The position numbers and the translations under genes were made by a program. Shown piece by piece: positions 25,060 through 63,979 of a stretch of 64,000 nt of DNA. A model generated the notes under the pieces. That model was not told the origin of the DNA. It saw nothing but the letters and a program-made list of their open reading frames with translations, and ran no database searches. The stretch comes from Octopus vulgaris. Its lineage: Eukaryota. Positions within the stretch are counted from its first letter, which is position 1. Each line of letters begins with the position of its first letter. The stretch covers positions 113,770,001-113,834,000 of the forward strand of contig OX597815.1 of NCBI GenBank assembly GCA_951406725.2, given 5' to 3'.

Positions 25060-26075
25060 TCTGATTTAGGCACAAGTCTAGCAGTTTTACAGAGAGAGAG
25101 AGTTAGTAAATACCATTGACCCCAGTACTTGACTCATACTTTAATTAATTTATTGATCCTGTGGGGAATGGAAGGCAAAGTTGACTTTGATGGGATTTGA
25201 ATTCAAAATATAATGTGTAGGAAGAAATGACTGCAAAGTATTTTGTCCAAGGTGCAGGAGTGGCTGTGTGGTAAGTAGCTTGCTTACCAACCACATGGTT
25301 CCGGGTTCAGTCCCACTGCATGGCACCTTGGGCAAGTGTCTTCTATAGCTTCAAGCTGACCAAAGCCTTGTGAGTGGATTTGGTACACAGAAACTGAAAG
25401 AAGCCTGTCGTGTATATATGTGTCTGTGTTTGTCCCCACCAACATCACTTGACAACTGATGCTAGTATGTTTATGTCCCCGTAACTTAGCAGTTCAGCAA
25501 AATAGAATGATAGAATAAGTACTAGGCTTACAAAGAATAAGTCCTGGGGTCAGTTTGCTCAACTAAAGGCAGTGCTCCAGCATGGCCACAGTCAAATGAC
25601 TGAAACAAGTAAAAGAGTAAAGAATGCTCTAATGATTCTGTCAGCTCACCATCTTTGGTTTCTAATTTAGGTAAAAGGTGAGCAATTTTGAGGTGAGTTG
25701 GTTAGTTGATATCACCAACCCCAGTACTTTATTTTATTGATCCTAGAGGGATGAAAGGCAAAGTTGATTTCAGTGGAATTTGAACTCGGATTGTAAAGAG
25801 CCAGAACAAATAACACAAAGTATTATTCTAATGCTTTTGCTAGCTCATCACTTTCAAGTAATGATTATTTTTATTGTAGGCACTAGGCCTGAAATATTTG
25901 TCTGGGGTCCCCTCCCCCTTTCCCCAGTGCTCAACTGGTACCTATTTTATCAACCCTGAATGAATGAAAGTAAAGTCAACTTTGGCAACATATGAACTCA
26001 GGTTGTAAAACCAGAAAAAATGTTGCTAAGCATTTTGTCTGACATGCTGACAAATCTGCCAGCATGCCATCTTCA
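25060..26075 (-). mobile_element. Cluster of three family-A SINEs (minus) with a nested family-B SINE
   Basis: The host copy is split at 25250/25622. Confidence 0.8.
25251..25622 (+). mobile_element. tRNA-derived SINE family B, near-full-length
   Basis: Head ggagtggctgtgtggtaag...ggttcagtccc, core ggcaccttgggcaagtgtctt, internal (TG)n, tail gaaacaagtaaaaga. Other copies at ~9795 (+), 11270 (-), 12465-13180 (-), 15220 (+), 20960-21330 (-), 27220 (-), 39146 (+), 42340 (+), 57915 (+). Confidence 0.88.
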
Positions 26076-31974: not shown

Positions 31975-32995
31975 CATCATCATTATCATCATTGTTTAAC
32001 GTCCGCTTTCCATGCTAGCATGGGTTGGACGATTTGACTGAGGACTGGCGAACCAGATGGCTGCACCAGGCTCCAATCTTGATCTGGCAGAGTTTCTACA
32101 GCTGGATACCCTTTCTAACACCAACCACTCCAAGAGTGTTGTGGGTGCTTTTACGTGCCACTGCACAAGGGCCAGTGAGGCGGTACTGGCAACGGCCACA
32201 CTCAAATGGTGTTTTTTACGTGCCACCTGTACAGGACCCAGTCCAGTGGCACTGGCATCGACCTCGCTCGAATGTTTTTTCATGTGCCAGTAAGGTGACT
32301 CTGGTAACGATTACATTTGAATGGTACTTTTTACGTGCCACCAGCACGAAGTCAGTTAGCTGCTCTGGCAATGATCATGCTCAGATGGTGCTCTTAGCGC
32401 TCCACTAGCATGGATGCCAGTCATCGAATTTGATTTCACTTTTTTATTTCACTTGCCTCTTACTTACTTCCTTACTTGTACTTGTGACGGCGTTCACCCA
32501 GGGCGAGTTGAGCTGGCTTCTTCTCTGGTCCTAACGGCATCACGAACCATGGCGGCCCACGAGGTCACTGGAGATAGCAAGCCATTTGCGGTTCCATCTG
32601 CGCAGACCAACCACCTGCAGACCCGAGAGTTCAGAGAGGTCCTCCTTTATCATTGTTGCCTAGGTCTTCAGCTGTCAGCTGGGAAGTGGAGGTGGAAGGA
32701 GGACATCACAAATCAGCTCACCCTCTGGATGCTGGGCCGCATGACTGAACCACCTTAAGCACCATTGTAGAAGCACCAAACGGAGGGGCCGGAGATTCAG
32801 GTGATGATGAAGACCGGCTGTAGGAACCCGATCAATGTGTCGGCAGTGAAGAATGCGGCAGAGGCAGTCATTGTCGAACACCTCCAGCCTTCGCTGATCA
32901 ACTACCCTCATAGGCCATGTTTCACAACCATAGAAGAGGATAGTACGAACTTGCCTCAACAGGTCTTTGCAAGCAGAGTTTAGTGTCCAATGAAA
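31975..32995 (-). mobile_element. RTE-tail-related non-autonomous element with (GAT)n tail and internal ~60-bp tandem units (ttttacgtgccac...ggcactggc...gaatggt); host of the RTE insertion
   Basis: (CAT)n at ~31975-31993. The same tail sequence occurs at 4809-4990, 6345-6470, 26820-27020 and 36030-36070. At least four related units lie at 32150-32410. Confidence 0.7.
32460..32948 (-). mobile_element. RTE-clade LINE 3' fragment with (TAAG)-like tail and 9-bp TSD ACTTGCCTC (32451-32459 / 32949-32957)
   Basis: ORF VRTILFYGCETW...LEVFDNDCLCRIL...LRWFSHAAQ is typical of the RTE RT C-terminus. An exact direct repeat flanks the insert, and CpG is relatively preserved (young copy). Confidence 0.9.
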
Positions 32996-33518
32996 ACCTT
33001 AGTTAAAAATGTATAAAATTGTTTCTAAATTAAGAACAAGGCCAACAGTTTTGAGGGAAGTGTGTTAGTCCCTTACTTTGACCTCAGAACCAGACTGGCA
33101 CTTTATTATCTTAACCCCAGAGGGATGAAAGACAAAGTTGACTTTAATGGGTTTGAACTTGGAAGATAAAAAGCTAAAACAAATATTGCAAAGCAAATTT
33201 TCCAATTCTGCTAATCCACCCCCTTTCAGAAATATCAATAATGGTTTCTAATTCTGGCACAAGGCCAGCAATTTTAAGGGTAGCAGGTTAGCTGTTTACT
33301 TCAATCCCATTGTTCAAGTGGTACTTATTTATAGACCCTGATATATGAAAAGCAAATTCAACCTCAGCAGAATTTGAACTTAGAACATAAGTCTGGAAGA
33401 TATGCCCAGTGTGCTAATGATTTTGCCAGCTTTCCACCTGAAATATTAGTGATAATATTAAAAATAACCATATTCATAATAGTTGGCTCAGCAGGGTCTG
33501 CATTGTTTTTCTCTTTAA

Positions 33519-33740: not shown

Positions 33741-34647
33741 TTAAATAAATAAACTGCACTGTTTCTACTCTTGTTGCTTCTTGTTAGTTGTTATCCTCTC
33801 TAATGGATACTCTGCATCTAACTACTGTAATTGTCAGCACTGGCCGTTTCCCCATATTGAGAGTTTGGCCTCTGAATTTATTTTTCTTTGATTTTAGGTT
33901 GAAATAAAAATGTCCAAAAAAATTGAGTCAATCAAATTAAAACAAAGGAATTAAACCCTTAGGAAGTCCATTAACAATATGGCTATGGGAAAATACCTCA
34001 GGGGAGTATTCTGCATATTAAATACACATACAGCAAAGCCTCACATATGTAATAGAGTGAACTGTAAAACTTTGATCAACTGAGATTATTAAGGCAATTA
34101 ACTGGCAGAAACTCCCACTAGAGGTGTTTTTTAAAATCTAAAAACAAGCAAGTCAAGGAAATTCATTAAGCCTAACAGCCTCCAATGCCTGCAGTCTTTG
34201 TCAAATTGATTAACAAACTGCTCATGCCTGTGCCCGCATATCCCCCCTCTCCTCTCTCATTAGTGAAGATATTTTAATTAGTAGGAGAGAACTGGTATGC
34301 AGAAATTTAAGTTTTCATTTCTTTACTTGTCCAATGGTTATTGGTAGCAAAAGCACACAAGATTATGTTTTAAATGAATTTACTGCAGGCTCATTATTAA
34401 ATTTATACTGGGATGTAATTTTTAATCAATAGATTTTTAGACCATACAAGCAGCATTTTCATTGCATTCATAATCATGTACTGTAATGTTTTTATACATC
34501 AAAGAAAGTACCTTTGAAGATGCTGTTTATGTATGTGCCTGAAAATATTAGTTATCATGCTTGTACAAACTGTATCATAAGCTATACATTTTCTTTATTA
34601 GCTATAAAATGCATCAGTGACTTATTATTATTATTATTATTATTATT

Positions 34648-35067
34648 CAGTAGTTTTATTTTTATAGCGTGCTTTCACTTCACTACCGAGCGCAGCTCTG
34701 TGTGCCTTGGGTATGTGCTGTGATTTGTTGTGATGCTCTGATGGTTATTGTATGGAAAGTGTTCTGCGTAGGATGTGTGCAGTGCCTAGTAGTGCAATTT
34801 TCTGTATGTTATATGTGTTTGTAAGTCCTGGTGTTTTTGTTATGTATTTGTCTGAATATTTTTTTATCATGCCTAATGCACCTACTATGATAGGAATTGT
34901 TTCTGTTTTCTGATTCCACATTCTAGTTACCTCTATTTCCAGGTCTTTGTATTTTGAGAGTTTCTCCATTTCTTTTAGAGACACGTTGTCATCAGCCGGT
35001 ATTGATACATCAATTAGAAAGCATTTTTTTTCTTCATGATCTCTGACAACTATATCTGACGACTATA
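34648..35067 (-). mobile_element. 5'-truncated R4/Dong-clade non-LTR retrotransposon (restriction-like endonuclease C-terminus plus 3' UTR) inserted in (TAA)n
   Basis: Translates as DIVVRDHEEKKCFLIDVSIPADDNVSLKEMEKLSKYKDLEIEVTRMWNQKTETIPIIVGALG...IQKIALLGTAHILRRTL, which carries the PD..D / KxxKY REL motifs. Flanked on both sides by (TTA)n. Confidence 0.88.
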
Positions 35068-35146
35068 TTATTATTATTATTATTATTATCATTATCATTG
35101 TTATTGTTATTATTATTATTATTATTATTATTGTTGTTATTATTAT

Positions 35147-35595
35147 TAAGGTGGCAAGCTACCAGAATTGGTAGCATGTCAGATGAAATGATTTGTGGTA
35201 TTTCATCTGCCACTACATTCCAAGTTCAAATTCCACCAAGGTTGACTTTGCCTTTCATCCTTTTGGGGTCGATAAAATAAGTACCAGTTGAATACTGGAG
35301 TCGATGTAATCGACTCATCCTCACCTCCCCCAAGCTGCCCTTGTAGCAAAAATTTGAAATAATTATTATTATTATTATTATTAAGGCCGCAAGCTGGCAG
35401 AATCGTTAGCACACTGGGTGAAATGCTTAGTGGTATTTCATCTGTTGCTACGTTCTGAGTTCAAATTCTGCCAAGGTCGACTTTGCCTTTCATCTTTTTA
35501 GGGTTGATAAATTAAGTACCATTTGAGTACTGGGGTTGATGTAATTAACTATCCCACGCCTCCAAATTTCAGGCTTTGTGCCAATAGCAGAAAGG

Positions 35596-35637
<42 letters not shown>
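35147..35637 (+). mobile_element. Two tandem family-A SINEs separated and flanked by (TAT)n
   Basis: Copies at ~35150-35360 and ~35385-35597. Confidence 0.85.
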
Positions 35638-45560: not shown

Positions 45561-48500
45561 GTGGTTAGGATACTCTCACTGCACTCGTCCACTTCTCCCT
45601 CCTTTGTCTTTCAGTGACCTTCTTCCTGTAGCTTCTCTGTCACCCTAACACTACCTCATCTCCCTCTCTTTGCCTCATCAACCTCTACAATATCCTTACC
45701 TCTTGTTTACAAACCTTGTAGTGAATACATACATGTAGCTATTCCATTCTGTTGTCAATGTGCTGTAAAGGAGCCATTTTGTGGGAGTATATATAAGGTA
45801 TATTAAAAGAAAGATTATTTGAACCTCGAATTTTAACCAGAAAATTTCAATATTACAGCTTCTATATGGTAACTTGGCTTTAGAAATAGCAACCTTACTC
45901 CCTCAAATCACAGTCTGCTGCCTTAGAAAAGAACAAATATATTGAAGAGTGCAATCACAAGACATTATCTGAAATAATATGGGAGAGTCATAACTGGAAC
46001 TTCTTTGATTATAGGTCTGCTCAATTGGCTAATCTATGAATAGACAAGAACCAGAAATTTTCCTGTTGATGTACTTTTAAATGTTTTAGGTTTCTCCTTC
46101 TGAAAACCTTAGTTGACCATTCAATCAGTTATTCAATAGTATGTTCACATATACAACTTTAAAATTATTTTGATTTAATTATAAAGCCTGCTTAATCAAT
46201 TATTTAGGAGTTGTGTTGCTGCAGTGGGTTTATTCATTCATTTATTTAGTGATACTTTATTGAAGACATGATATGAATACTTCAGACAGACTTTAGCCAC
46301 AGAATAAAAATTCATATTCTGTACTTGTTCCATATACCTTGACATCATTCATTAACCCAGATGAAATTCTTCAGCTGATAGATTTGTTGTTTGGAATCTA
46401 TTTCTTTCTGTTTTGAGTTTTTGTTAATTTCTAGTCTGGTTATTGTAAATCATTTGGACCATTGTTATTAATGCTAATTTTGTATTGTTTACTAAGCTAT
46501 TGTTTGTATTGTTTGTTAGTAAACAGGAACACAGCCCAAACGAATTGTTTTTAAGTATCTTTTTATTTCCTTGTACTGAAAATAAAAATAAAACTAAAAG
46601 GAAAAGACATTATTCTTTCAGCATTTCATTTCATTACCACACCTATTTAGCATTTAAATTCTCTAAATCAATTTGTTATATCAAGCCTTAATGACATGGT
46701 AACTATGGTAGCAGCTAAAAAATATCTTTACTAAATCATACAGAAGATTGTATTCTTTTTCTTTCTCCTTTCATCATTTTTATGTATTGCACTGCAGAGG
46801 GTTAAAAGAAATGTTAAAATTTCAGAGATGTGTGTTGGTTTTCTTCAGTATTATGTAAATGGCATGCTACGCATCAAAAGAGGAAGTTTCTTTTTACGTA
46901 TTTTACAGCAAAATTAACATTTCTTTATTTAAGACATAAATGTTTTGATGCTTTGAAGGAATATTCTTCTTGTGTTAGAGAAGAATAAATATATAAAGAA
47001 AGGGAGTGTGTTGAAAAGAGAAATTTTACCCCATTGTTGATTTGAATTGAATCCAGTATTTTCAGATTAACATTTCTCACTTCTTAATAATAATAATAAT
47101 AATAATAAGAAAAAAATAATAATAGTTTCAAATTTTGGCACAAGGCCAGGAATTTTAGGAGAGGGTGCTAGTTGATTTCATCAACCCCAGTTCTTAACTG
47201 ATACTTATTTTATCGACCCTGAAAGGATGAGAGGCAAAGTTTACTACTACTAACAATAATAATAATAATAATAATTAATTCTGGTTTATTGGCCACAAGG
47301 GCTAACTAAAATCAAGAAAAACATGTAAGGACAAAGACAGGACGAAAAGTACAAAGGGTTTTGTCCGAAAGAAAGGTCCGTGTAAACATTCATAATGATA
47401 ATAATAATAATAATAATAATAATACCAACAACAACAACAATAATAATGCTTTCAAATTTTGGCATAAGGCCAACAATTTTGGAGAAGGGGATAAGTCGAT
47501 TACATCCAATGTTCAACTGATACTTATTTTATCGACCCCAAAAGGATGGAAGGTAAAGTCGACCTCAGTGATATTTGAATGAACTAATAATAACTAGCAG
47601 TACCTGTGGAAATTCCATGTTTGTTTTGTTTTTTTTAAATTGTACTATGGAATTGTATATTTTCTGAATCATTTGATTCTTGTGATGGTGTAAAAGTCCA
47701 CATAGATAGAATTGGAGGTGTAATCTCAGGAAACAATATCTCTGAAAGCTATATTCTTATGGCTTCTATTTTGTGAAATGTTCTCTATTATTTTTCATTT
47801 AACTGTGGAACATAATGAAAGCCATTATTATTCTGCTTCAGTACATTGGTAAAGTTTTAAGGAATCTTAATATGGATAATTAAAAAAATCTATAAAAACA
47901 CCATATCCTAAACCTTTTCATTCTTTCTCTTGTTAGCCAACACCTATTGTTGTCCATATTTTATAAACAAATATATTTTGATTGAGCAGACGATAATTAG
48001 TTGCACCAAAGAGCATGCATCAAGTGATAGTTGATATCAAAATTAAAAGACAAAAATAATATATCAAAAGCCTACACTTTTCACTGTTCAACCACTACTG
48101 CCACCTCTTTTAACCAATATCCCTATTGACTCCAGCACCACCACCACCACCATCATCATCACATCCTACTTATCTGTACCAAGGCTCAGTCCAAGTTATT
48201 TGCCAATCGAGATTGTTTTCACTTCTTTTCATTTCGACTATCTACCTGTTTGTCTATATATTTCTATCATGATGGGTTATGTATCTGCCTACTCTGACAA
48301 TATGGTTAAGCATTTAAACCTAATAATAATTTTAAAAAAGCATAAAATACTGCATAATGATGGTACCCTAGCATGAACACAGCCCTTGGACTAGAACACA
48401 CGAAAGAGTAACATCCACAACTATTTGCAAAGATTATTTCACATTAATTTAACTGTCTATCAATATGTCTAGCCATCCATCTTTCTCTCTTCTGTTGATG

Positions 48501-48699: not shown

Positions 48700-49540
48700 T
48701 GGTTTCAAAGTTTGGTCCCAGGCCAGCAATTTTGAGGGGAAGGAGCAAGTTGATTACATTGACCTCTGTACTTGCCTGGTTGTTATTTTATCAACCCACA
48801 AAGTAATTATAATATTAATTGTAATAATTCTTTGTAATTTTTGCACAAAGTCCACAATTTTAGGAAGATGGGATTAGTTAATTATATTGGCTCAAGTGTT
48901 CAATTGATACTTATTTTATCAATCCTGAAAAGATAAAAGACAAGTTAATCCTGGTATTCTTAGAACATTAAAAGCCATAAAAATTTCTGCTTATTTTGTA
49001 TGGCACATTGACGATTCTGTGGACTCAACTGCTTTAATAATAATAACAATAATAATGGTGATAATAATCCTTTCTACTATAGGTACAAGGCCTGAAATTC
49101 TTTAGGAGGGCTAATTATTAACATTGACCCCCAGTGCTCAAGAGGTACTTATTTCATTGACCCTGAAAGAATGAAAGATGAAGTCAACCTAGGCAGCATT
49201 TGAACTGGGACATAAAGACGGACAAGATGTTTAGTATTTTGTCCAGCATGCTAACAGTTCTGCAACTTGCCACCTTAATGATAATAATAATAATAATATT
49301 GGTTTCACATTTTGGCACAAGGCCAGTAATCTTGGGGGAGGAGTAAGTCAATTACATCAACCCTAGTGTTCAACTGGTACTTATTTTATCAACCTCAGAA
49401 GGATGAAAGGTAAAGTCGACCTTGGCAGAATTTGAACTCAGAACATAAGGACAGACAAAATACTACGAAGCGTTCTGCGCAGTGTAGTAATGATTCTGCA
49501 AGTTCTCCACCTTCCAATGATGATAATAATAATAATATTA
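48700..49540 (-). mobile_element. Head-to-tail array of about four family-A SINEs separated by (AAT)n
   Basis: Repeated ggcacaaggccag...tacttattttatcaacc...aagtcgacc...ttgaactc units on the same strand. Confidence 0.8.
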
Positions 49541-57431: not shown

Positions 57432-58084
57432 TATAGATAGATATTTATGTGTGTGTATGTAAATGTATGTGTGTAAGATTATAATTCCTTTTCTCCACCT
57501 GTTTTAGATAAATTCTTCTATGGATTTCACATGTTTTTATTTAACCTTAGATATCACCTTTTTTTATATATTAAAAGAAAAAACAAACCTAAAATTAATC
57601 TGTAAGTTGTGCCAGTACTATCAGAAACTCTTCCTTTTGCTACAGTGTGTGTGTATAAATCACATATAATATAATTGCCTCCTGAACTAATTTGATGTGT
57701 TAAGAATCCATACCCTCTCCTTTACCTTGCAAAGCCATCATCTGTAACTGACTGCTTTTATGGTTACTGGAAGTCAGCTCTGTTAAGAGTTTATACTGAG
57801 ATAAAAGAAAGTTGATCAGTCTTTCATTTCTTAGCTAACAACAGCTAAAAACATGTCGTATATTTCTTAATATAACAGAAAACGATCAAATTATTTAAAA
57901 TCTATGTATAAAGGTAAGTGTGGCTCTATGTTAAGATGTTTGCTTTGTATCCACATGGTCATAGGTTCAGTTCGACTGCACAGTATCTTGGGCAAGTATC
58001 TTTTATCATAGCCTTCCATTAACCAATGCAGTGGAGTGGAACAGGGCACACGGAAAGTATGGAAGCCCATTACCACTACCTTTA

Positions 58085-58690
58085 TCGTCATTATCTTTGC
58101 CTTCGATACATGGTTGTGGTGAAGAGCAGGTCCAAGGTGTTGTCGCCTATTTAAAACTGTATACAGCTATGGTACGACCACACTTGGAATTCGCATCATC
58201 AGTTTGGAATCCCTATCTTGCTCAGAACATTGACCTCCTGGAATCTGTCCAGAGACGTGCAACCAAACGCATACCCTCCATCAGACACCTACCATATTCT
58301 GAGCACCTTGTTTCCCTGGGCATGGATTCACTGAAGCTCCGGCGTCTGGCGACGGACTTGGTAAACACCCACAAGGTTATCAACCACCTCACCAATAACA
58401 ACACTGAACACCTTTTTGATCTCCATGTGTCTAACACACGTGGACATGCCTACAAAGTCAGAAAACAACACAGCTCCCATGACTTTTGGAAACATTTTTT
58501 CACGCTCAGAGTTGCTGAAGCATGGAATAAACTGCCTGCGTCAGTTGTTGACTGCCATGACACTGCATCCTTTAAGGCCCTCATGCTTTCCGAAATCCGC
58601 CGAAACTACACTTGATTATATATACACTTTAGATGAGTTGTAGTGCACCTGAGCACTGTACACAATTATTATTATTATTATTATTATATA
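58085..58690 (+). mobile_element. CR1-clade LINE 3' fragment (RT C-terminus 58145-58615, 3' UTR, (ATT)n tail) with a short inverted endonuclease-region piece at the 5' end
   Basis: LYTAMVRPHLEFASSVWNPY...LESVQRRATK...NTRGH...FFTLRVAEAWNKLP is canonical CR1. The minus strand of 58085-58147 reads GDNTLDLLFT. Confidence 0.92.
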
Positions 58691-62731: not shown

Positions 62732-62826
62732 CCAAAACTTTACACCAAAGATCTACTTGATCTTGTGGCCTCGCATCTTAACTTAAAAGAAAAGGAATAT
62801 TTTGGTCTATACTACTTGGATGAAAA
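62732..62826 (+). CDS. FRMD4: FRMD4A/B-like next exon (FERM-N): PKLYTKDLLDLVASHLNLKEKEYFGLYYLDE plus 2 nt
   Basis: Polypyrimidine tract with ttgcAG acceptor and AA|GTAAGA donor; 95 nt. Continues the previous exon in frame and matches FRMD4A PKLLAKELLDLVASHFNLKEKEYFG. Confidence 0.95.
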
Positions 62827-62915
62827 GTAAGATACATTTTTTTATATTTTCAACCGTCTTATTTATTTACATTATTTACATTTGACAGATATTTGTCCTC
62901 ATCTTGTTTGTTGTT

Positions 62916-62961
62916 AACACAATGTTTCGGCTGATATGCCCTCCAGCCTTCATCAGGTGTC
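62916..62961 (-). ncRNA. Minimal type I hammerhead ribozyme motif (Penelope-like-element type)
   Basis: Minus strand reads GACAC-CUGAUGA-A-GGCUG(gagggcauau)CAGCC-GAAAC-AUU-GUGUU. It has stem I GACAC/GUGUU, intact CUGAUGA and GAAA core boxes, a 5-bp stem II and a vestigial stem III (AACAUU, probably from palindromic AACGUU). Confidence 0.75.
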
Positions 62962-63209
62962 TTGGGGAAATTTCGAACCTAGGTTCTCAATCCTAAGATA
63001 TTTTTCGATGTTATTATTATTATTATTATCATTCTGGTCACTGCATGGAATCAAACTTGGAATCTTGGGGTTAAGAGCATGGGCTACTAACCCCAAGATT
63101 CCAAGTTCGATTCCAAGCAGTGACCTGAATAATAATAATAATAATAATAATGATAATAACATCGAAAAAATACCTTAGGGATCAGAACCCAGGCTCGAAA
63201 TTTCCCCAA

Positions 63210-63254
63210 GACACCTGATGAAGCCTGGAGAGTATATCAGCAAAACATTGTGTT
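63210..63254 (+). ncRNA. Degenerate hammerhead copy in the right palindrome arm
   Basis: GACAC-CTGATGA-AGCCTG...CAGC-AAAAC-ATT-GTGTT. The G of the GAAA box is lost and stem II is damaged, so it is probably inactive. Confidence 0.6.
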
Positions 63255-63510
63255 AACAACAAACAAGATGAGGACAAATATCCATCAAATGTAAATAATG
63301 TACGTAATTCCTCATCTCTTAAATATAGAGCTGTTTTATTTATAGTTTCTATATTCAAAAGATAAAATCTACTGCAACTGAATCTCTGTATTTGTTTACC
63401 TTTGTTTCAACTAAAAGCTACTATTGAAAATACTTGGCTCTTTTTAAATACTCAAATCTCAATGATCACTTTCTTTCATGTATATGAAACATACTGGTAG
63501 TATGGCATAA

Positions 63511-63979
63511 AGAGTCCAGAAAGAGTCCATGGCTACCCACATGGTTCATGGTCTCAAAAATGTTTCCTATGAAGAAAGGCTGAGGACGCTCAACCTTTAT
63601 TCTCTAGAAAAACGCCGCCACCGTGGTGATCTCATTCTCGCCCACAACATCATAAGCGGAAAGTGTAACCTCTCGAAAGAGCTGTTCTTCACTCCTGCTC
63701 CAGAGTGTCGGCTGCAGGGTCATTCCAAAAAGCTCTACCTGTGATGATTTCATCTCAATCGAAGGAGAGGAGCTTTCTCCGTCTGGATTGCGGATCCGTG
63801 GAACAAGCTGCCAGACGAGATAGTGAAGATGCCGACGACCGCTTTGTTCAAAGCCTCCCTTGACCTCAAGTGGCCTGAACTCTTTACATGAACACCACCC
63901 TGTACTTAACTCCATGTCCCCCTACATGGCCTTGCTATTTGCTTTTGAGCCAAATTAACTAACTAACTAACTAACTAAC
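63511..63979 (+). mobile_element. Second CR1-family 3' fragment with (AACT)n tail
   Basis: SYEERLRTLNLYSLEKRRHRGDLI...LQGHSKKL*...FSVWIADPWNKLP with a premature stop; terminal (AACT)n. Confidence 0.9.

Follow-up and report, generated by a model that had tools for sequence, protein, structure and literature searches.

The question raised by this locus is what kind of repeat lies in the intron that follows the FERM_N exon of an octopus FERM-domain gene (+ strand), about 40 bases beyond the exon, and which machinery copied it there. The element is a very abundant octopus repeat of ~290 bases, and the window (i.e. the whole 64-kb stretch of DNA that was analysed) is AT-rich animal DNA, rich in microsatellites and repeats. 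The entire structure forms a head-to-head palindrome (62868-63334) in which the right arm (63069-63334, +) overlaps the inverted left arm (62868-63073, -) by 5 central bases (Table 1). Aligned one against the other, the arms show 189 matches, 16 mismatches and 4 gap events (92% over aligned bases), and the inverted pairs within the palindrome measure 65-76 nt each, with identities of 88-94%. A first-pass annotation had described a chimera of tRNA-like head, AAT tract and minimal hammerhead ribozyme present in both orientations, and this composition is confirmed; the span that it assigned (62916..63330) does hold a real element, but the palindrome begins 48 bases further to the left. No second copy of the head or of the body was found elsewhere in the 64-kb window. 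We consider it probable that the locus is a decayed head-to-head insertion of a high-copy tRNA head + AAT + hammerhead repeat, and that the family is transcribed by Pol III and copied in trans by Penelope-like (PLE) retrotransposons; that PLEs rather than LINEs do the copying is likely.

Table 1. Features of the palindromic insertion and its surroundings (window coordinates).
Feature	Position	Strand	Basis and remarks
Host exon, part of FERM N-terminal domain	62732..62826	+	Translation; Pfam FERM_N E=6e-11; AG/GT borders read from the sequence
Target-site duplication candidate, left copy	62854..62866	+	11 bp (1 mismatch) or 13 bp (2 mismatches)
Left arm, 5'-truncated inverted copy	62868..63073	-	From anticodon loop to short 3' end, no tail
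Minimal type I hammerhead, core intact	62916..62961	-	Only descriptor match in the window; antisense to the host gene
AAT tract, left arm	63011..63033	-	Sequence reading and inverted-repeat search
tRNA-derived head, right arm	63069..63127	+	Second half of A box, anticodon-loop remnant, B box (63105-63114), short unique spacer
Head-to-head junction	63069..63092		5-bp microhomology (63069-63073 complementary to 63088-63092) around a 14-base loop
AAT tract, right arm, 10.7 units	63128..63159	+	Repeat search
Spacer, AAT tract to ribozyme	63160..63209	+	Present in both arms; deep coverage in all runs
Decayed hammerhead, right arm	63210..63254	+	G12 lost, helix II mismatch at 63224; predicted cut after 63249
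A/C-rich segment to short 3' end	63255..63302	+	Carries 5' strand (63266-63274) of a 9-bp stem; loose ends at 63302
Optional ~30-nt tail (27-32 nt)	63303..63334	+	Right arm only; 3' strand (63309-63317) of the 9-bp stem; loose ends at 63329 and 63334
Target-site duplication candidate, right copy	63331..63343	+	Pairs with 62854..62866

A strict descriptor of the minimal type I hammerhead matched once in the 64-kb window (left arm, minus strand) and never in 200 dinucleotide shuffles. The matching motif has C3 at 62956, N17 at 62921, a helix I of 5 bp and a helix II of 5 Watson-Crick bp that is preceded by one extra base. The right arm fails the descriptor through the loss of G12 and the helix II mismatch at 63224; the core of the minus-strand (left) arm is intact. 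The helix III palindrome is absent from both arms because position 16.2 carries A instead of G (a CpG-type change). The family majority keeps it (G at 63247 in 70%, 93% and 79% of the summed contig depth of three DNA runs, and in 2228 of 3258 reads of one RNA run) and also restores helix II (among the variants listed, G at 63224 in 95-99% and, with the RNA run included, G at 63247 in 68-93%), in line with the earlier prediction that the ribozyme is intact in young copies. Three traits are given for PLE minimal hammerheads (an extra base before helix II at 9/10.1, a G10.1-C11.1 pair and a palindromic 15.2/16.2) in PMC4209133, and all three were observed here, with the 15.2/16.2 palindrome in the family majority only. 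At this element, an Rfam search at E<=10 returned no hammerhead match, ARAGORN detected no tRNA, and the folding z-scores of six tested stretches were not significant, so that tRNA head and hammerhead are identified by their conserved motifs and by the distances between these. Of the Rfam output, two weak miRNA matches and two weak snoRNA matches fell below the gathering score and were rejected, and a helix II covariation signal drawn from spurious proteins (33 units) was discarded as mixed and explicable by CpG decay.

The head is recognizable as tRNA-derived by C32/U33, A37/A38 and G53-T54-T55-C56-A58, whose spacing relative to the A box is the canonical one of a tRNA. This copy lacks the first half of that box, but in each of the four runs the consensus of the loose ends upstream of 63069 supplies it; in the family majority both the A box and the B box are complete and spaced as in a tRNA. 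The same loose ends show that a short conserved leader precedes tRNA position 1; its sequence is complementary to that of the first 5-7 head bases, and it could be a 5' hairpin or a fixed ancient fold-back. On the sense strand, 63069-63332 has no run of four T (as is the case for 359 of 2550 windows of equal length), and the first TTTT downstream of the head falls in the right copy of the target duplication. As for the age of the insertion, each arm departs from the listed family majority at ~3.5% of the non-CpG sites, with no such difference common to both arms, which points to an old copy. Two CpG-type changes common to both arms were considered as a sign of a single template and rejected, since each arm has lost 4 of 7 CpG sites and shared changes of this type are no proof. 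With its A box cut and its sense-strand ribozyme broken, the copy is, to judge by its sequence, probably dead.

Evidence for the family comes from alignments of the right arm against three DNA runs and one RNA run. Part of the stretch is contained in 20 of the 24 listed runs, and at least half of its words in 15 (four organisms and 12 studies in all); runs X19 and X20, whose shares were small, did not enter the alignments. Matching contigs number 25,643, 25,446 and 12,998 in the three DNA runs, and the summed contig depth peaks at 2-9 million (vs about 10-70 for single contigs); as summed contig depth is no copy number, the resulting estimate of 10^4-10^5 copies is to be taken as an order of magnitude. 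In the three DNA runs the family is short, non-coding and interspersed, with defined ends: its boundaries are sharp on both sides, and the flanks beyond them show low agreement. The depth climbs from head to ribozyme to 3' part (3.2, 4.8 and 9.0 million in run X1), a gradient expected for 5'-truncated retroposons. Collections of metagenomes, viruses and prokaryotes yielded no match to a 33-base pattern of the element. Spurious gene models that include it are named from O. bimaculoides, O. sinensis and O. vulgaris. We also noted that the octopus gene models P0230 and P0138 open with about 30-36 codons from the element family, either through mis-annotation or through exonisation.

An alternative that we regard as unlikely holds that two independent repeats, frequent neighbours, are seen here, a tRNA SINE ending in AAT (moved by an R4/Dong-type LINE) and PLE pseudo-LTR fragments inserted into AAT tracts, the chimera being copied only now and then through PLE read-through and without Pol III involvement. 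PLEs do favour AT-rich simple repeats, (AAT)n being named among them (PMC3846280, excerpt); a retroelement 3' end of the window (34622-35062, -) also closes with CTG + AAT repeats, as does the head of the element; and the 3' module reaches 2-3 times the depth of the head, with some long contigs that begin at the body and have no head piece among those listed. Nevertheless, the same junction is present in both arms, and head, AAT and body are spanned by two of the 24 listed contig pieces, from two other organisms (the AAT region itself being left out of the alignment). Furthermore, the RNA depth is nearly equal on either side of the AAT tract (about 1320 and 1200 vs 1320), and the excess of the 3' module is what 5' truncation would produce. 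A two-repeat history may therefore explain the birth of the family without excluding its later spread as one unit.

The neighbouring repeats of the window touch on the same history. The retroelement 3' end at 34622-35062 (-), which we take to be R4/Dong-like, consists of a short ORF remnant and an AAT tail and has no Pfam match; as its last bases before the AAT match the head of the element, the internal AAT of the latter may be a relic tail. A retroelement fragment of the window aligns, along 70% of the query, with an Octopus bimaculoides protein at 88% identity. At least two more abundant SINE-like families were observed (35124-35620, 47090-47600, 48700-49540, 25260-25520 and others), one of them strung in tandem through AAT tracts, together with LINE 3' fragments at 57965-58615 (+), about 63490-63975 (+) and 32675-32998 (-), presumably CR1- and RTE-like, one of which ends in a TAAC repeat. 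Pfam gave no match for the two of these fragments that were scanned.

At its 3' side the family has two end classes, a short one at 63302 and a long one at 63329-63334, represented by similar numbers of contigs in the three DNA runs (442/424, 319/372 and 345/343), although part of the short class may consist of copies that carry an additional unit, since the loose-end consensus at 63302 starts by repeating the preceding 9 bases. In keeping with an optional tail, the depth beyond 63307 drops to 63-72%; the tail sequence was also read in an O. bimaculoides gene model. The short end sits in the loop of the 9-bp stem, and at this locus the left arm has the short end, the right arm the long one. 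Both classes terminate in unique sequence, with neither a terminal poly(A) nor a simple repeat, and for this reason the element, SINE-like as it is, does not qualify as a LINE-dependent SINE2. Relative to the predicted ribozyme cut, the family ends 53 and 80-85 nt downstream; the reverse transcriptase (RT) of a reconstituted anole PLE starts 85-92 nt past the cut (PMC11167929), vs 80-85 nt for the long end here. That RT initiates within the RNA, in an AC-rich stem-loop, using two sites between which the tail lies, and extra 3' sequence is immaterial to it (PMC11167929).

The RNA run contributed 8884 matching reads out of 12.9 million (one unstranded library), 79% of which continue into unlike sequence, as expected for copies inside host transcripts. 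No pile-ups of read starts or ends, including at the ribozyme cut, were seen in this run. The first-pass annotation had further proposed a 'ribozyme-processed' family, a 'retrozyme hybrid', and this is the part of its reading that we do not retain: the locus has its two ribozymes in opposite orientations, so that no single transcript contains a pair able to dimerise, a cut in a monomer would separate the promoter from the 3' module, and the RNA reads do not accumulate at the cut. Taken together with the poor cleavage of PLE minimal hammerheads, even as dimers (PMC4209133, excerpt), these points suggest that the hammerhead is probably left mostly uncut and carried as part of a recognition module. 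In the one PLE that has been reconstituted, that of the anole, cleavage is dispensable for insertion, and ribozyme mutants still insert (PMC11167929). What remains of the proposal (non-autonomous, high-copy, with a tRNA-derived head, a PLE-type minimal hammerhead intact in the family majority and a PLE-type inverted insertion) stands.

A retrozyme- or Sm-alpha-like cycle, in which dimeric hammerheads process tandem transcripts to unit RNAs or circles and reverse transcription of these follows, appears quite improbable on the same evidence. It would be suited by the palindromic helix III of the family majority, by go-back joints (63282 to 63184, depth 1587, run X1; 63282 to 63210, depth 557, run X3), by one opposite-strand joint that begins at 63250 (the base after the predicted cut), and by a sister family (proteins P0122-P0282; same ribozyme-and-tail frame, different 5' part) in which 27 of 159 proteins have two or three detected units, mostly 43 codons (~129 bases) apart and arranged head-to-tail. 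Against it, the locus is head-to-head and not tandem, no family end lies at the cut, the joints near 63249-63253 (6 of the 15 listed) adjoin an indel of the reference arm and may be alignment breaks, and the go-back depths stay below 0.1% of the family depth. As observations in their own right, the go-back joints suggest that some loci hold tandem arrays with units of 74-105 bases, each of which includes a whole hammerhead and could dimerise.

We return to the insertion itself and its probable copying by a PLE. Of 300 position pairs drawn at random, 2 scored as high as the candidate target duplication. In run X9, a contig of 2915 nt matches the right flank from exactly 63331 onwards (8 differences in 155), and the 2136 bases that precede this match include none on the element among the listed pieces; we infer that it represents the empty site. 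At the head-to-head junction, 20 Watson-Crick pairs extend outward from 63073:63088, and the natural family head differs upstream of 63069. Strand-switching joints occur elsewhere in the family (4 of the 15 listed), and 17 RNA reads carry another fold-back junction, 6 bases upstream. PLE insertions are described with an inverted 5'-truncated partner and a 30-40-bp tail on one end (PMC8557442, excerpt), and with 8-10-bp duplications, a 31-bp tail and pLTRs that are sufficient for trans-mobilisation (PMC3846280, excerpt); an inverted 5'-truncated partner and a short target duplication in AT-rich DNA are found at this locus. A further reading, in which the palindrome moves as a unit of its own, like a foldback or MITE-like DNA element, or was produced by a local inverted duplication once the element had inserted, is most improbable and already largely refuted. 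In spite of the long inverted arms and the flanking duplication, coverage to the left-arm side of the junction reaches at most about a tenth of that of the head, the family majority has an intact head upstream of 63069, junctions vary between loci and the arms differ by the tail.

On the assumption that PLE copying in trans is the correct reading, the A and B boxes would drive a Pol III RNA that is devoid of TTTT and would end in flanking T-runs. The RT-endonuclease of a PLE would then bind the 3' module, putatively derived from a pseudo-LTR, and reverse transcription would start internally at either of two sites ~30 nt apart; an internal start would make a poly(A) or a ribozyme-made 3' end unnecessary, and a Pol III transcript that ends in random flank would be usable as a template. 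Here a nick was probably made in each target strand, the two lying 11-13 bp apart (the reconstituted anole PLE cuts and extends both strands of its target; PMC11167929), and one cDNA may have been initiated from the short end and the other from the long end, their 3' ends being joined via the 5-bp complementarity in the head. Two cDNAs made on opposite target strands and joined at the head would yield the palindrome, the one-sided tail and the duplication. A close alternative for the palindrome is fold-back self-priming, proposed for PLEs (PMC3846280, excerpt), which at a single locus gives the same outcome.

The search for an autonomous partner was conducted at the protein level, and one such search gave no match at all. 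Protein searches with the frame of the element returned spurious ORFs (46 in one search and 756, of which 120 were listed, in another) and found no RT or GIY-YIG protein linked to the 3' module; likewise, a Pfam scan of 18 + 13 of the listed spurious ORFs gave no RT and no GIY-YIG. Several candidates were rejected, i.e. one scanned ORF with an RNase H-like domain (read as a chance fusion), long repetitive matches from tapeworm, diatom, insect and plant together with an EGF-repeat protein (unrelated), and the cluster member P0286 (a complex I subunit, also unrelated). The sister family offers a lead to the autonomous element. Its last units are long in 70 of 88 cases and short in 14, and 5 proteins read on in frame from the unit into a coding segment that they have in common, which may be the N-terminal region of a PLE. 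This segment had no informative match in Pfam, NCBIfam, PDB or Atlas and no related loci, and its single-sequence structural model has a mean pLDDT of 43.9. PLE ORFs are described as beginning inside the pseudo-LTR and tail (PMC3846280, PMC11167929, excerpts), and O. vulgaris harbors 190 PLE families, with recent insertions in 30 Penelope families (PMC13282606).

Among known systems, the element recalls the SINE-like Sm-alpha/Sj-alpha of schistosomes, in which a tRNA-derived Pol III head is followed by a hammerhead in tens of thousands of copies, and where a canonical hammerhead frees units from tandem transcripts (PMC6765202, PMC2770079, excerpts); the octopus element differs from it by a minimal PLE-type hammerhead without a helix III loop, by PLE-type ends, by an optional tail and by its head-to-head arrangement. 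With the pseudo-LTRs and non-autonomous derivatives of endonuclease-bearing PLEs that were compared (Poseidon PAc, Adineta Pen2a, Chlamydomonas MRC1 and the heliconiine short Penelope elements) it has in common the minimal hammerhead, the ~30-nt tail, the inverted 5'-truncated partner, the short duplication and the AT-rich target (PMC4209133, PMC11167929, PMC3846280, PMC8557442, PMC6685494, excerpts). Non-autonomous PLEs are known from Chlamydomonas and butterflies (PMC8557442, PMC6685494, excerpts), yet the consulted excerpts on PLE derivatives describe no tRNA-derived Pol III head such as that proposed for the octopus element, which also lacks an ORF. The tRNA SINEs (SINE2, including octopus OK, OR1 and OR2) are also short, non-coding, interspersed and present in very high copy, with A and B boxes at tRNA spacing; unlike in SINE2, the 3' end of the element is neither a LINE tail nor a terminal simple repeat and the AAT is internal (OK and OR1 were compared by description, and the element may be identical to one of them). 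OR2 is a CORE SINE (PMC4758252, excerpt). Metazoan non-LTR retrozymes are likewise non-coding, bear a type I hammerhead and have been proposed to be moved by PLEs, but they form tandem repeats that give rise to circular RNAs, and no tRNA head is described for them in the consulted excerpt (PMC7761336), in contrast to the non-tandem locus reported here. Helenus, Ajax and Cassandra, too, combine a small-RNA-derived Pol III promoter with the cis-elements of a non-LINE retrotransposon; they use the LTR machinery (LTRs, primer-binding site, 4-5-bp duplications), and the octopus element would be their PLE counterpart (PMC10886601, excerpt).

The claim of an 'undescribed system' is accordingly narrowed: the combination of tRNA head and hammerhead was already known from Sm-alpha/Sj-alpha (PMC6765202, PMC2770079, excerpts), and what the searched literature, which covered few subscription papers and was in part seen as excerpts, does not contain is a hammerhead-bearing octopus SINE or a SINE mobilised by a PLE. 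Octopus is unmentioned in PMC7229834, and the consulted excerpts of PMC7761336, PMC8967140, PMC4758252 and PMC3531059 do not describe the element. A family this abundant is probably already present in automated repeat libraries under some label.

The RNA run also differs from the DNA runs in its variants. T>C changes at 63171 (286 of 1329) and 63201 (580 of 2369) and an A>G change at 63239 (381 of 1837) reach at most 0.4%, 0.3% and 1-5%, respectively, in the DNA runs, and the listed A>G/T>C sites number 20/8 in RNA vs 9-12/2-3 in the DNA runs. This excess looks like A-to-I editing on both strands of the family, although the RNA and DNA runs do not stem from a single individual.

Whether these observations define a class of PLE-partnered SINEs, in which a tRNA promoter acquired a PLE pseudo-LTR and multiplied to tens of thousands of copies across octopuses, and in which head-to-head insertions record two-strand priming from two RT sites, we hold to be evenly balanced. 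In current descriptions SINEs depend on LINEs; dependence of a SINE on a PLE, if true, would constitute a third pairing beside LINE-SINE and LTR-TRIM. It would also imply that a cis-module of ~125-175 bases is sufficient for a PLE to move cargo, and would provide many thousands of natural insertions in which questions of PLE biology (the origin of the tail, the inverted junction and the cutting by the ribozyme) can be addressed. Moreover, intronic inverted copies such as this one may represent a large pool of dsRNA for editing in octopus.
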